Origin: a virus
Taxonomy: Duplodnaviria; Caudoviricetes
IMG/VR virus record: IMGVR_UViG_3300028888_000053
Span: 128,001-192,000 of that record
Direction: 5' to 3' (one strand)
Length of the DNA: 64,000 nucleotides
Of this stretch, positions 33,212 through 45,197 are shown piece by piece. Every line of letters begins with the position of its first letter. Positions within the stretch are counted from its first letter, which is position 1. The position numbers and the translations under genes are program-made. Below the pieces are notes generated by a model, which did no database searches, was not told the origin of the DNA, and worked only from the letters and a program-made list of their open reading frames with translations.

Positions 33212-33627
33212 GTATTATTAAATCATTCGAAAAAGCATCAGCTTTAAAGAAAGAACGAAAATGGGAATTTTTATATATTCTTATTGATCTTCATGATACT
33301 GTTTTTAAAGCATGTTATTATGATCAAGAAACATTTGAATGGTTCCCATATGCAAAAGAAGCATTGCAGCTAATGTCTAAAAGACCAGATTTTAAATTAA
33401 TTCTTTGGTCTTCTACATACTTTGAAAAACTAACAATGTATGATAGGATATTAGCAGAAAATGATATTCATATAGATTATTTTAATATTAATCCTGAATG
33501 TCATAATACATTTCTTTCTGACTTTAGTCAAAAACTATACTTTAACGTTGGTATTGATGATAAGTTTGGATTTGATCCAGAAAAAGATTGGTATAAAATT
33601 TATGATTATTTATCTCATTTAACATGA
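33208..33627 (+). CDS. HAD-superfamily hydrolase-like protein
   Basis: IDLHDTV...LILWSS...K.Y...IDDK. Confidence 0.7.
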   Translation: MSIIKSFEKASALKKERKWEFLYILIDLHDTVFKACYYDQETFEWFPYAKEALQLMSKRPDFKLILWSSTYFEKLTMYDRILAENDIHIDYFNINPECHNTFLSDFSQKLYFNVGIDDKFGFDPEKDWYKIYDYLSHLT

Positions 33628-34190
33628 AAGTAGGAGTTATTCTTGCTCGGTTTCAGCCAATACATAATGGGCATATAGAATTAATAAAGTATGCTTTACA
33701 CGGCAATGAAGTTGTGCATATCTTTATTGGTTCTGCCGATAAATTTAATGTTAGAAATCCAATTCCTATTCACGAAAGGAGACGTTTGGTAATAGCTTCT
33801 ATCAAAGAAGTTTTTACTGATGAAGAAATGGATCGTATTTTTATTCATGAATTACCAGATTTGGATAGTGAAAGCAATAATAGTATTGAATGGGGATTCT
33901 ATCTGTATTCTCATATAGTACATGAAATTAAACAAGCTGAGTTTTCATTATACTATAGTGATGGATATGAGTTAGTATCTTCATGGTTCCCTGGATTTAT
34001 GTTTAAGGATTTTATATCATTAGTATTACTGGCTCGTAATTCATGTGTACACGGAGTAAGTGCCACACTAATAAGAGAAGCCATCATTAATGATGATGTT
34101 GAATTCTTACGCAAGAATGTTTCAGATATTGTATTTGAATCAAGAGAAGCGATTAAGAGGTATATTCAATTAAGTGAATTAAGAAAATAA
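33624..34190 (+). CDS. nadM: NMN/NaMN adenylyltransferase (NadM-like cytidylyltransferase family)
   Basis: ARFQPIHNGH, IGSA...RNP...ER, VSATLIRE. Confidence 0.8.
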   Translation: MKVGVILARFQPIHNGHIELIKYALHGNEVVHIFIGSADKFNVRNPIPIHERRRLVIASIKEVFTDEEMDRIFIHELPDLDSESNNSIEWGFYLYSHIVHEIKQAEFSLYYSDGYELVSSWFPGFMFKDFISLVLLARNSCVHGVSATLIREAIINDDVEFLRKNVSDIVFESREAIKRYIQLSELRK

Positions 34191-34215
34191 CAATTAATAA
34201 TTAATTAAACAAATT

Positions 34216-34971
34216 ATGAAAATAGCAGTAGTAGCTAAAGTTCGCAACGATTATTTTAATGGTTGCACAAGTATGGAAGAGGCATTGCGTAAAGTATGCC
34301 TGGATGAGAATGTAGTGTTTAATCTTACATGCAGCACTATCTCAAGATTAAATGATGAAGAGGACTTTGATTTTGAGAATCATGATCCTATTCGTAGTGA
34401 TGATGAACACATTACAGTAACATTGATCTGGGATAATTTTGATCCTGATTCACATGAGACGACTGCTGCAAATGACGTTGAGTTTGCAGACGAGCTTCTT
34501 GCAGATTTTAGCAGTAGTTTCCGTTTTTCTAATGCCACGACAGAACGTGTTTCTCATGCTATTGGAAGCACTAACAATCATGCGCAAGACGAAGGTGAAA
34601 ACGCACAAGAGACTCCAATTCCAGAAGACGCACCTCGTCCAATGACTAGTGTATCGAATGATGGTATGCGTGCCACAACTAATATTCCATCTTCTACTTT
34701 GACTGAAGATACACACACTGTGCAAACAGAAGCAGAGCATCCATCTGCCGCACACAACCAACGTCCAACACGTACAATCACTTATGATGAGTTGATTGCC
34801 CGTCTTAATAATCTTCATGTACCTGGAAATACTCCTATCTATTTGAAGTATTATGAGGAAGGACAGCTTGTAGAGTATGGTATGCCTACTGTAGAAGTTG
34901 TAACTCAGAATAGAACCAACATTGACAATGCTAATGAAGTCTTTACTGGTCCTCGTGTTGTAATTTATTAA
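34216..34971 (+). CDS. hypothetical acidic protein with low-complexity linker
   Basis: 251-aa ORF. Confidence 0.75.
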   Translation: MKIAVVAKVRNDYFNGCTSMEEALRKVCLDENVVFNLTCSTISRLNDEEDFDFENHDPIRSDDEHITVTLIWDNFDPDSHETTAANDVEFADELLADFSSSFRFSNATTERVSHAIGSTNNHAQDEGENAQETPIPEDAPRPMTSVSNDGMRATTNIPSSTLTEDTHTVQTEAEHPSAAHNQRPTRTITYDELIARLNNLHVPGNTPIYLKYYEEGQLVEYGMPTVEVVTQNRTNIDNANEVFTGPRVVIY

Positions 34972-34987
34972 TTGTATTAACTTTTAG

Positions 34988-42592: not shown

Positions 42593-42594
42593 AT

Positions 42595-43761
42595 ATGATA
42601 GCATCTATTTTAGACACAGACCTTTATAAGTTTTCTACTTCATATGCGTATATGAAGTTATATCCCAATGCAGTAGGAACTTTCGCATTTCACGATCGTG
42701 ACAACACGCAATATACTGATGAGTTTCTTGCTCAATTAAAACTTGAGTTTGCAAAACTTGGAATGCTTTCCTTATCTACACAAGAAAAATGTAAAGCTGA
42801 TTCTGTAATTAGATATATTCCTACAGTTTATTGGGAGTGGTTGTCTGGTTTCCATTTCCTTCCAACAAAAATAAATGCATGGTTGGATAGTGAAAAACAT
42901 CTACACATTGAAGTAACTGATCTTTTGTATAAGGTAACACTTTACGAAGTACCTATTCTAGCAATTGTATCTGAACTTAGAAATAAATTCCTCGGAAATA
43001 ATATTGTTTCTATGAACGACGTAGTCAATAGACTCGATACAAAGATAAATATTGCTAATGAGTATAAACTGAAATTTAGTGAGTTTGGAACAAGAAGAAG
43101 ATTCTCATATGCTGTTCATGAGGAAATTATCAAAGAACTAAAAGAAAAGTGCCCAATATATTGTGTTGGTACTTCTAACGTTCATTTTGCTTTGAAATAT
43201 GATATGATACCAGTTGGAACATTTCCACATGAATGGATTATGTTTCATGGTGCTATATTTGGATATCGAGAAGCAAACTTCCTTGGAATGAGAGATTGGG
43301 TTCGAGTGTATGATGGTGATCTTGGTATATTTCTAATGGATACTTATACATCTAAGATCGGTCTTAATAGTATGTCATTAAAGTACGCTAAACTATTTGA
43401 TGGCGTTAGACAGGATTCTGGTGATGAATATCAAATAGGTAATATGGTTATTGATCATTACAAGAAACTGAATATTGATCCAACGACAAAGACCATTGTA
43501 TTTAGTAATGCTTTAACTTTTGATAAGTATAAAGATATTGTTGAATATTTTAGAGGAAGAATTAGAGTCTCCGCTGGTATTGGTACTAATCTTACTAATG
43601 ATTGTGGTTTCCAACCATCCAATATTGTCATGAAACTGAAATATGTTTCTCTTGATGAAAATCAACCAAAGAGAAAATGTATTAAGATTAGTGATGATCT
43701 TGGTAAGCATATGGGTGATGATCAAGAATTTGAAATAGCAAAATATCAATTGGGTATATGA
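42595..43761 (+). CDS. pncB: nicotinate phosphoribosyltransferase
   Basis: SILDTDLYKF, EFGTRRRFS, GTSNV, GTFPHEW, GVRQDSGD, GIGTNLTND, KISDD.GK. Confidence 0.95.
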   Translation: MIASILDTDLYKFSTSYAYMKLYPNAVGTFAFHDRDNTQYTDEFLAQLKLEFAKLGMLSLSTQEKCKADSVIRYIPTVYWEWLSGFHFLPTKINAWLDSEKHLHIEVTDLLYKVTLYEVPILAIVSELRNKFLGNNIVSMNDVVNRLDTKINIANEYKLKFSEFGTRRRFSYAVHEEIIKELKEKCPIYCVGTSNVHFALKYDMIPVGTFPHEWIMFHGAIFGYREANFLGMRDWVRVYDGDLGIFLMDTYTSKIGLNSMSLKYAKLFDGVRQDSGDEYQIGNMVIDHYKKLNIDPTTKTIVFSNALTFDKYKDIVEYFRGRIRVSAGIGTNLTNDCGFQPSNIVMKLKYVSLDENQPKRKCIKISDDLGKHMGDDQEFEIAKYQLGI

Positions 43762-43945
43762 TTACATATTTGTTGTGTGGAGTCTTCTTTGCTATTTTGA
43801 TGGATTTATGTACAAAAGATTTTGATATTACTCTTCCTGAACTGGAAAAAGAAACATCGCCTTTTGTCGCAGGATTTTTTACCCACTCTGTAACAATTCT
43901 TGCTTGGCCTGCATTTGTACTATTAATAATAATTCTAATTTTGAA

Positions 43946-44446
43946 ATGATAGGAAGAATTGAGAAAAATTTTAGTTATACTATTCCTGATGGACCTCATG
44001 CAGGACGAACATTATGGAGTGGTAGATACTGTTGTATTGTTGGCATTATCATTAAAATAGTAAATGGTGAGTATTACATCCTAGCTAATCAACGAGGTAG
44101 TGGTACTCCAGATTTTCAAGGATTTTGGAATTGTCCATGTGGTTTTCTTGAAGGTAATGAATCTGCTGAACAAGGAGTAGCACGAGAAGTGTTTGAAGAA
44201 ACAGGTGTTATTGTTGATCCCAAAAACCTACGTTTACATTCTGTTCAAAGTGATCCAAAAGTTTGTAACAATGGTAATGTAACACTCCGATACTTCTGTT
44301 ATGATTATCATTATAATGAAACAGAAAGAAGTGGAGGAGAAGAGAATGAGGTTGCTGATGTTAAGTGGATTCATGCCAAAGACATCAATAATTATCAGTG
44401 GGCTTTTAATCATGATGAATTAATTAAAATGTTTATCGATGACTGA
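43946..44446 (+). CDS. NUDIX hydrolase (ADP-ribose pyrophosphatase-like)
   Basis: GFLEGNESAEQGVAREVFEETG Nudix box; WAFNH. Confidence 0.9.
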   Translation: MIGRIEKNFSYTIPDGPHAGRTLWSGRYCCIVGIIIKIVNGEYYILANQRGSGTPDFQGFWNCPCGFLEGNESAEQGVAREVFEETGVIVDPKNLRLHSVQSDPKVCNNGNVTLRYFCYDYHYNETERSGGEENEVADVKWIHAKDINNYQWAFNHDELIKMFIDD

Positions 44447-45197
44447 ATATACTTTTAATGCTGAACGAATTACAGCAGAATGTGTAGAATGGATTAAATC
44501 CTGGTTCTATAAGAATGGAAGGGATTGTAATGCATATCTTGGATTGTCTGGAGGTAAAGATAGTACTATATGTGCTGCTTTACTAGCTAGAGCACTTGGT
44601 AAAGAAAGAGTATATGGTATTTCTATGCCTAATACTATGCAAGATGAGAATGATGCAGATAAAATCGCAGCGTTTCTTGGTATTAATTATCAGTGTGTCC
44701 ATATAGATAAAATCTACAATGAATTTACTAAATTGGGTATCAGTAATTATGCACAAACTAATGTTCCTCCTAGAATTAGAATGACTATGTTATATGCATT
44801 AAGTCAGTCTAATAATGGTAGAACTTGTGAAACGGGGAACTTAAGCGAAAACATGCTGTTCTATTTTACAACAGGAGGTGATAATCTGTGTGATTTTTCA
44901 CCGCTTGGTAAGCTTACTGTAACCGAGATTAAGCAAATGGGATATGTTCTAGGATTACCTGCTAAGTGGATTGAAAAGATTCCAGATGATGGACTTCCAA
45001 ATTCTGAACCTGATGAAAAGAAACTTGGTATTAAATATGCTGATCTTGATCAGTATATTCGTACTGGTGAGCTTGAAGATAAGCAGGAGCTAGAAAGAAT
45101 TTTTGAAATTCATAATCGTTCTTTGTTTAAAGAGGGCTTAATTAATGTGCCAACTTATGATCCTTTAATTCGTAATTATTTTATAAAAACAAGATGA
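44439..45197 (+). CDS. nadE: NH3-dependent NAD+ synthetase
   Basis: LGLSGGKDS, N..PRIRMT.LY, TGNLSE, FTTGGD, DEKKLG..Y. Confidence 0.92.
   Translation: MTEYTFNAERITAECVEWIKSWFYKNGRDCNAYLGLSGGKDSTICAALLARALGKERVYGISMPNTMQDENDADKIAAFLGINYQCVHIDKIYNEFTKLGISNYAQTNVPPRIRMTMLYALSQSNNGRTCETGNLSENMLFYFTTGGDNLCDFSPLGKLTVTEIKQMGYVLGLPAKWIEKIPDDGLPNSEPDEKKLGIKYADLDQYIRTGELEDKQELERIFEIHNRSLFKEGLINVPTYDPLIRNYFIKTR

Follow-up and report, generated by a model that had tools for sequence, protein, structure and literature searches.

Does a large phage of the ruminant gut carry its own means of rebuilding nicotinamide adenine dinucleotide (NAD+) through deamidated intermediates, and what would such genes be for? 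This question is raised by a 64,000-base stretch of DNA, bases 128001 to 192000 of the IMG/VR record IMGVR_UViG_3300028888_000053 (hereafter, the window); the whole record has 212,277 bases and is rated 100% complete by CheckV. An earlier annotation made from the letters of the window (the sequence-only reading) had pointed to genes for a nicotinamidase (PncA, starting at 41650), a nicotinate phosphoribosyltransferase (PncB, 42595), a Nudix hydrolase (43946), an NAD synthetase (NadE, 44439), and a NadM-like adenylyltransferase (33624), and had proposed that they encode a complete Preiss-Handler route from nicotinamide to NAD+. NAD+ depletion is among the commonest anti-phage strategies of bacteria, and, to our knowledge, three phage routes of NAD+ rebuilding have been experimentally proven, all of which run via amidated intermediates. 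We found all five genes at these positions on the + strand, and we consider it rather likely that they make up the phage's own Preiss-Handler-type NAD+ salvage, assembled from parts of mosaic origin and keeping NAD+ available, including against defenses that degrade it by an NAD+-cleaving enzyme (NADase).

The phage is a jumbo phage of the rumen or ruminant gut. The window DNA, which has a G+C content of ~31% and carries nearly all of its genes on the + strand, has near-identical matches in 15 studies of sheep and bovine gut metagenomes, and its sequence was confirmed by contigs from a bovine-gut DNA run and a sheep-gut RNA library. The contigs of the RNA library equal the window in 29 of 30 bins, including those of the NadM-like and NadE genes, although DNA carry-over into this library is possible.

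We assigned the enzymes by family scores, motifs, and solved relatives. The pncA gene (41650..42159, + strand; 169 amino acids) matches the isochorismatase domain PF00857 (E 1.7e-18), and its best match in the PDB is 1ILW, the pyrazinamidase/nicotinamidase of P. horikoshii (E 2.4e-14). Both the catalytic Asp/Lys/Cys and the metal-binding Asp-x-His...His align to 1ILW, in columns that are invariant across seven phage PncAs. With this Asp-Lys-Cys triad and Asp-His-His metal site, the protein is predicted to be a nicotinamidase. PncB (42595..43761, + strand; 388 amino acids) passes two NCBIfam cut-offs, scoring 395.7 bits against NF003704 (cut-off 379) and 369 bits against TIGR01514 (cut-off 269.55), and aligns with the nicotinate phosphoribosyltransferase (NAPRTase) of Porphyromonas gingivalis, PDB 2IM5, at E 2.1e-99; these scores point to a nicotinate phosphoribosyltransferase of the PncB type, not NadV. 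That its best solved relative comes from P. gingivalis fits a Bacteroidota host. NadE (44439..45197, + strand; 252 amino acids) belongs to the single-domain, ammonia-type NAD synthetase family (PF02540, E 1.2e-43). It reaches 141.3 bits against TIGR00552 (cut-off 63.65), has the PP-loop SGGKDS, and matches 2E18, 3P52, and 3FIU in the PDB. The Nudix hydrolase (43946..44446, + strand; PF00293, E 3.3e-16) has 166 amino acids when counted from the ATG at 43946, which lines up with the starts of its relatives, the open reading frame (ORF) itself opening at a TTG at 43904. Its Nudix box, G-x5-E-x7-REVFEETGV, is intact.

The adenylyltransferase gene (33624..34190, + strand) encodes a single-domain protein of 188 amino acids that matches PF01467 (E 2.8e-07). 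Its top NCBIfam matches are NMNAT and NadM-Nudix families, while the NadD family TIGR00482 gives only E 0.0033; it carries the motifs ARFQPIHNGH and SATxxR, and its solved relatives are the MJ0541 NMNAT and the Francisella NadM. The AF2/AlphaFold model of the protein has a predicted local distance difference test (pLDDT) score of 80.4, and its top Foldseek matches are the NadM structures 2QJO/2QJT and the archaeal NMNAT 4YP5, with template modeling (TM) scores of 0.64 to 0.71. By family scores, motifs, and predicted fold, we assign the gene to the NadM/archaeal-NMNAT type. The ORF just upstream (33208-33627) runs with its end into the start of the NadM gene. PHROG gives it a weak match, to phosphoheptose isomerase (SIS domain, E 2.2e-05), Pfam gives it none, and it is not conserved in the loci of related viruses. 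The PHROG match had led us to consider that the NadM-like gene encodes an HldE-type heptose-phosphate adenylyltransferase, an identity that we rejected because the family scores, motifs, and fold are those of NadM/NMNAT and the relatives of the gene are partnered with NadV.

Taken together, the gene identities support the claim that a deamidating route leading from nicotinamide to NAD+ is encoded in full. PncA would convert nicotinamide to nicotinate, and PncB would combine nicotinate with host phosphoribosyl pyrophosphate (PRPP) and ATP to give nicotinate mononucleotide (NaMN); the NadM-type enzyme would then adenylylate NaMN to nicotinate adenine dinucleotide (NaAD), from which NadE would form NAD+ with ammonia. 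The Nudix enzyme may split ADP-ribose into AMP and ribose-5-phosphate, the latter of which could be returned to PRPP by a host PRPP synthetase. According to the ORF list, neighboring genes between 41363 and 45973, PncA through NadE among them, overlap by 4 to 8 bases in an operon-like manner, and the NadM-type gene lies 8 kb upstream of the PncA-PncB-Nudix-NadE string.

We searched the whole record for genes of other NAD+ routes. The sequence-only reading had seen no PRPP synthetase in the window, and this absence extends to all 212,277 bases, where nothing matches Pribosyltran_N. PncB is the sole PF04095 match and thus the only member of the NAPRTase superfamily, so the genome has no NadV; the same PF04095 search does pick up the NadV of related phages. 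The NadM gene is likewise the single PF01467 match, so there is no second cytidylyltransferase-like gene and hence no NadD. The genome also has no match to PnuC (PF04973), no NAD-dependent ligase, no Macro domain, and no Nudix gene other than that at 43946. Since NadV, NadD, PnuC, and PRPP synthetase are all lacking, the five-gene route would be the only NAD+ route of this phage.

The clustering of these genes is not a matter of chance: the same genes are found together in at least nine other viral contigs and in bacterial operons, and PncA, PncB, Nudix, NadE, and an adenylyltransferase form a selected module. Eight IMG/VR loci encode a PncB that is 59 to 73% identical to that of the window, six of them on contigs of 132 to 401 kb; wherever the flank suffices, PncA, Nudix, PncB, NadE, and the adenylyltransferase are collinear within ~5.5 kb, and one locus, L009, shows only PncA and PncB. 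Subsets of the module occur in the human-gut phage record MT835470, the 735-kb phage LR756501, and the Agrobacterium phage Atu_ph07. Two further candidates were discarded. The PncB of the Moraxella phage Mcat17 (L015, KR093641.1) lies outside attR, in the host flank, and that of the "Acinetobacter phage MD-2021a" (L016, CAKLQH020000008.1) is on a contig that is an ordinary bacterial chromosome with ribH, nusB, thiL, and phoBR. Apart from the NAD genes, almost nothing is widely shared between the window and the contigs with related PncBs, suggesting that the module moves between phage backbones.

A NadM-type enzyme within such a module is found elsewhere as well. The 199-kb viral contig L085 has a fused NadM-Nudix, PncA, a 248-amino-acid NadE, and PncB within 4 kb, and rumen Clostridia metagenome-assembled genomes (MAGs) have operons of Nudix, PncA, NadE, NadM, and PncB (L170 and L173; also L127 and L131), with NadM present and no NadD above the cut-off in these genomes. 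The L085 cluster and the Clostridia operons indicate that the NadM variant is a recurring solution and not an accident. In L085, we also observed that PncA (11012-12025) has an extra N-terminal region of ~120 residues and that a gene for a CCA-adding tRNA nucleotidyltransferase (7792-9237) lies just upstream.

On the other hand, the parts of the window's set do not share one origin. The phages with related PncBs have a genuine NadD as their adenylyltransferase (motif GSFNPFHNGH; TIGR00482, E 1e-28) and a NadE of 284 to 332 amino acids that is merely 26 to 32% identical to the window's. The window's PncA and NadE differ from theirs in origin and are much closer to the proteins of rumen Clostridia and Bacteroidales MAGs: PncA is 45 to 49% identical to that of the Clostridia NAD operons, and NadE is 58% identical to that of a rumen/gut Bacteroidales MAG, 46 to 48% to that of the Clostridia operons, and 44% to that of L085. 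A pattern scan gave no close viral relatives of this NadE. NadM has a further set of relatives, 73 viral proteins of which most are ~50% identical, and 71 of these have no Preiss-Handler gene within 10 kb. A gene for a phage sigma-70 family factor with regions 2 and 4 (window 30456-31232) is conserved near the NadM gene, at 40 to 43% identity, in 51 of the 68 sister viral loci.

We found by whole-record searches that 18 of 19 near-complete sister genomes carry one gene of the NAPRTase superfamily, of ~500 to 570 amino acids, and that a representative of these is a clear Nampt/NadV (E 1.7e-150 to a solved NAMPT); NadE was absent from all five sister genomes that were checked for it. Because a NadV-type gene is present in 18 of the 19, the usual partner of a window-type NadM appears to be NadV, in a pair resembling NARP2. 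The phage under study is the exception, in that NadV is missing and PncA, PncB, Nudix, and NadE are present, and it looks like a member of a NARP2-type lineage in which NadV has been replaced by PncA, PncB, and NadE. A further proposal, which we make tentatively and regard as doubtful, is that this amounts to a fourth enzymatic route of NAD+ reconstitution protecting against NAD+-depleting immunity, with NadV swapped for PncA, PncB, and NadE and with NadM retuned from nicotinamide mononucleotide (NMN) to NaMN, an Asp85-to-Asn change being the candidate switch.

Several points weigh against our overall reading of the five genes as a Preiss-Handler-type salvage that serves in keeping NAD+ available. 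All NMNAT equivalog models stay below their cut-offs for the window NadM, the gene lies 8 kb from the remaining NAD genes, and its phage relatives (47 to 57% identical) are partnered with NadV instead of PncB in 18 of 19 near-complete genomes, so that their substrate is presumably NMN and the use of NaMN here is assumed. The substrate specificity of the Nudix enzyme is beyond the reach of its sequence. We found no biochemical or genetic data in the literature on any phage Preiss-Handler set. For each NAD+, the route would spend three ATP equivalents as well as PRPP of the host and free ammonia, which is slow and costly for an emergency response; no NAD-dependent ligase or Macro domain points to a particular need for NAD+; and in bacteria the same enzymes form a housekeeping operon.

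These points bear first on the order of the last two steps. Both orders have precedents in cells: archaea and Acinetobacter combine a NadM that is bifunctional for NaMN and NMN with a conventional NAD synthetase, whereas Francisella proceeds from NaMN via NMN to NAD+, using a 249-amino-acid NadE homolog that is an NMN synthetase and is paired with NadM-Nudix (PMC3376133). If the window NadM rejected NaMN, NAD+ would still be formed by the latter order, with NadE amidating NaMN and NadM, remaining specific to NMN, adenylylating NMN, so that the deamidating branch would feed an unchanged NARP2-type last step. This order is suggested by the NadV partners of window-type NadMs together with the lack of NadE in the five sisters, by the presence of 3FIU among the top three solved relatives of the window NadE, and by the lengths of phage NadEs, which are short (248 to 252 amino acids) alongside NadM, in the window and L085, and longer (284 to 332) alongside NadD. 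However, the two length classes match 2E18, 3P52, and 3FIU alike, so a specific closeness of the short type to the Francisella NMN synthetase 3FIU was not borne out, and the idea that the short type strictly covaries with NadM was rejected, for the Bacteroidales MAG whose NadE is the closest encodes NadD but lacks NadM. Since the NadE substrate in that genome must be NaAD, the clade of the window NadE most simply amidates NaAD. Moreover, the NadM-partnered NadE of M. jannaschii is a plain NAD synthetase without NMN synthetase activity (PMC3376133), and at NadM position 85, which precedes the invariant Trp90 by five residues, all eight NadV-partnered sisters examined have Asp, but the window protein and all four bacterial NadMs partnered with PncB and NadE have Asn, which hints at an adaptation of the window enzyme to the carboxylate of NaMN. 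We accordingly regard the Francisella-type order as unlikely, and the canonical order, from NaMN via NaAD to NAD+, as the one that we infer with reasonable assurance. The other alternative is that NadM stands outside the pathway, as the leftover of a NARP2-like NadV-NadM pair from which NadV was lost, and that a host NadD converts NaMN to NaAD. The position of the gene, 8 kb away and syntenic with the sigma-70 gene as in the sister loci, the NadV partners of its relatives, and the NadD of the likely Bacteroidales-type hosts would agree with this. Yet in the PncB loci whose flanks are long enough, NadE has an adenylyltransferase gene as its neighbor, indicating that the adenylylation step is normally phage-encoded, and the window NadM gene is intact with all motifs present, is spanned without any difference by a contig of the sheep-gut RNA library (DNA carry-over being possible), and shares Asn85 with the NadMs of NaMN routes; we therefore hold this alternative to be very improbable.

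The same weighing applies to the Nudix enzyme, which we consider probably an ADP-ribose pyrophosphatase. A Pro located 16 residues past the Nudix box, which we take to be the signature of such enzymes, is kept in all six phage homologs, and the nearest solved proteins, albeit weak matches, include the NrtR-type ADP-ribose binders 3GZ5/3GZ8 and the Nudix domain of the Francisella NadM-Nudix 2QJT. It could instead hydrolyze NADH or, in the manner of NudC, NAD caps, or it could sanitize nucleotides, in which case the recycling of ADP-ribose would fall; all NCBIfam Nudix equivalogs are far under their cut-offs, with MutT (E 3.2e-08) and NAD+ diphosphatase (E 1.3e-07) as the top weak matches. Against this stands the company that the gene keeps in phages, where PncB, NadE, and the adenylyltransferase accompany it: Nudix homologs adjoin PncB in five of the eight IMG/VR PncB loci, MT835470 and Atu_ph07 likewise have Nudix genes in their PncB loci, the one in MT835470 directly neighbors the adenylyltransferase gene, the two being arranged like the domains of NadM-Nudix, and the window protein aligns with the Nudix portion of the NadM-Nudix fusion in L085. 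We thus find a non-ADP-ribose function improbable. The conservation beside PncB and the fusion to NadM bear out the earlier placing of the Nudix enzyme in the pathway; its claim that ADP-ribose is recycled through this enzyme holds in a weaker form, because the conversion of ribose-5-phosphate depends on a PRPP synthetase of the host. A wider alternative concerns the purpose of the whole set, which may be a general auxiliary metabolic one that supplies more NAD+ to a jumbo phage whose infection is long and takes many resources, in a rumen rich in nicotinamide or niacin, whether or not the host has an NADase. NAD+ rises with NARP2-type salvage even without a defense system (10.1101/2024.02.11.579819), Li et al. 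(PMC11662467) first read such clusters as boosting NAD+ for phage-encoded NAD-dependent enzymes, rumen Clostridia have the identical enzyme set as an ordinary housekeeping operon, and the deamidating route is slow and demands much ATP and PRPP. On the other side, PncA and an ADP-ribose-type Nudix act on both products of NADases and travel with PncB across phage backbones, and the phage lacks an NAD-dependent ligase, a Macro domain, or any other obvious NAD+ consumer. We give this auxiliary purpose a real chance, though one short of even, and it is compatible with a role in counter-defense.

Because NADase cleavage yields exactly the two compounds on which PncA and the Nudix enzyme would act, the selected role of the set is most likely to keep NAD+ available during infection, including against SIR2-, TIR-, or SEFIR-type NAD+ degradation, and a counter-defense role is plausible by analogy with known phage routes. 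NARP2, a PRPP-dependent phage salvage, experimentally defeats Thoeris, DSR, and SIR2-HerA (10.1101/2024.02.11.579819). That system, consisting of NadV/Nampt and NatV/Nmnat in the Vibrio phage KVP40 (Osterman et al. 2024, 10.1101/2024.02.11.579819), resembles the window's set in starting from nicotinamide and host PRPP, in ending with a NadM-family adenylyltransferase, and in having an associated Nudix activity. It differs in that its Nampt (NadV) is absent from the window phage, where one amidated step would be replaced by three with deamidated intermediates (PncA, PncB, and NadE) and Nudix is a separate gene. NARP1 (Adps and Namat) and NARP3 (PnuC and a bifunctional NadR with NMNAT and ribosylnicotinamide kinase activities; PMC13464706) have the same goal of rebuilding NAD+ during infection, but the genome lacks both the PRPS-like Adps and a Namat/Nampt-family gene of the former and both PnuC and the NadR kinase domain of the latter. 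The route is thus distinct from NARP1 and NARP2, as had been proposed, and also from NARP3, the defining genes of which are all absent.

The route is not, however, a new idea, as the sequence-only reading had suggested. Li et al. (2024, Microbiome; PMC11662467) found complete salvage or Preiss-Handler routes in 174 of 668 gut jumbo phages, described pncB-nadD-nadE clusters (e.g., in Kuafu_71), mentioned phage pncA, and suggested counter-defense without experiments; Atu_ph07 and several huge phages carry such genes as well. Since clusters of this kind have been reported, our finding adds a member to the known phage Preiss-Handler sets. The window phage resembles those NAD-jumbo phages in being a gut phage of >200 kb in which pncB and nadE are clustered and an adenylyltransferase is encoded as well. 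It differs in having NadM, unlinked by 8 kb, in place of their NadD, so that its set is complete by function and not by the published gene list, from which nadD is absent here; the associated Nudix gene and the replacement of NadV are not in the main text of PMC11662467. The rumen Clostridia operons have the identical enzyme set, but they serve cellular housekeeping, their NadM and PncB are only 25 to 29% and 34 to 36% identical to the window's, respectively, and their Nudix (NrtR-like) proteins have 271 to 281 amino acids and are probably regulators with a DNA-binding domain. NadM also replaces NadD, alongside PncB and a NadE-family amidotransferase, in the archaeal/Acinetobacter and Francisella routes (PMC3376133), which are cellular pathways. 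What appears to be new here is the displacement of NadD by NadM, the mosaic parts, and the replacement of NadV by a deamidating branch in a NARP2-type lineage.

Other features surround these genes. An ORF of 146 amino acids (42152..42592, + strand) lies between PncA and PncB and is not conserved in relatives; it had no Pfam, NCBIfam, PHROG, PDB, or Atlas match and no homolog in related loci. The stop of a small ORF of 63 amino acids (43758..43949, + strand) overlaps the Nudix ATG (ATGA). These two orphan ORFs and a third, o96, matched nothing in any family library or Atlas. Directly 3′ of NadE, a string of seven genes with overlapping starts (45194-51690) encodes an ATP-grasp ligase, two proteins of 271 and 288 amino acids without an assigned function, a Peptidase_C26/GATase-I, a phiEco32-like COOH-NH2 ligase (PF14395), a class-II GATase (GATase_6/7), and an Amidoligase_2, and it resembles the phage amidoligase/peptide-ligase system that comparative genomics has predicted. 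We rejected these enzymes (ATP-grasp, Peptidase_C26, COOH-NH2 ligase, GATase-II, and Amidoligase_2) as an ammonia supply for NadE, because they are next to PncB in no relative and match that known, separate system. A scan for promoters and terminators gave results at or below the chance level. Two terminator-like hairpins on the + strand (41212-41239 and 51731-51754), the only two between 40000 and 52500, flank the genes from the small ORFs before PncA through Amidoligase_2; with their number at the chance level, they give only a hint that the NAD and amidoligase genes are one unit.

Just downstream of the NadM neighborhood lies a 70-base tRNA-like gene (34988-35057), the two-base anticodon of which is left undetermined by ARAGORN. 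In contigs of X20 (sheep-gut RNA library) and of X3 (bovine-gut DNA run), position 35078 is joined to 44440, at the NadE start, with 35 other letters between them. This joint could represent a relative with NadE straight after the NadM neighborhood and without PncA, PncB, and Nudix, or a short AT-rich misjoin; we found no repeat that accounts for it. An MgtC-family membrane protein is encoded at 37759-38151 (PF02308, E 6.3e-38), MgtC being otherwise a bacterial factor of virulence and Mg2+ homeostasis. A protein with a HAD_SAK_2 domain, the HAD domain of "Swiss Army Knife" RNA-repair proteins, is encoded at 38782-39249 (E 2.2e-23); tRNA genes are numerous in this region.

Overall, the five genes are an ordinary addition to the known phage Preiss-Handler sets with one interesting twist, in that NadM is used and NadV seems to have been replaced. 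Across the gut, rumen, soil, and sediment, large phages widely carry the deamidated route. If the tentative reading as a fourth route is true, its possible advantage would be an escape from host measures aimed at the amidated route. Closely related phages carry NadM with either NadV or PncA, PncB, and NadE, which allows a comparison of both solutions on backbones that are nearly the same, and a pair of NadMs differing at residue 85 offers a direct handle on how substrate choice evolves. If the set gives no rescue from NAD+-depleting defenses, it would be an ordinary auxiliary metabolic module; if it rescues phages from SIR2, Thoeris, or DSR, the anti-defense repertoire would extend to the phages of rumen and gut Bacteroidales.

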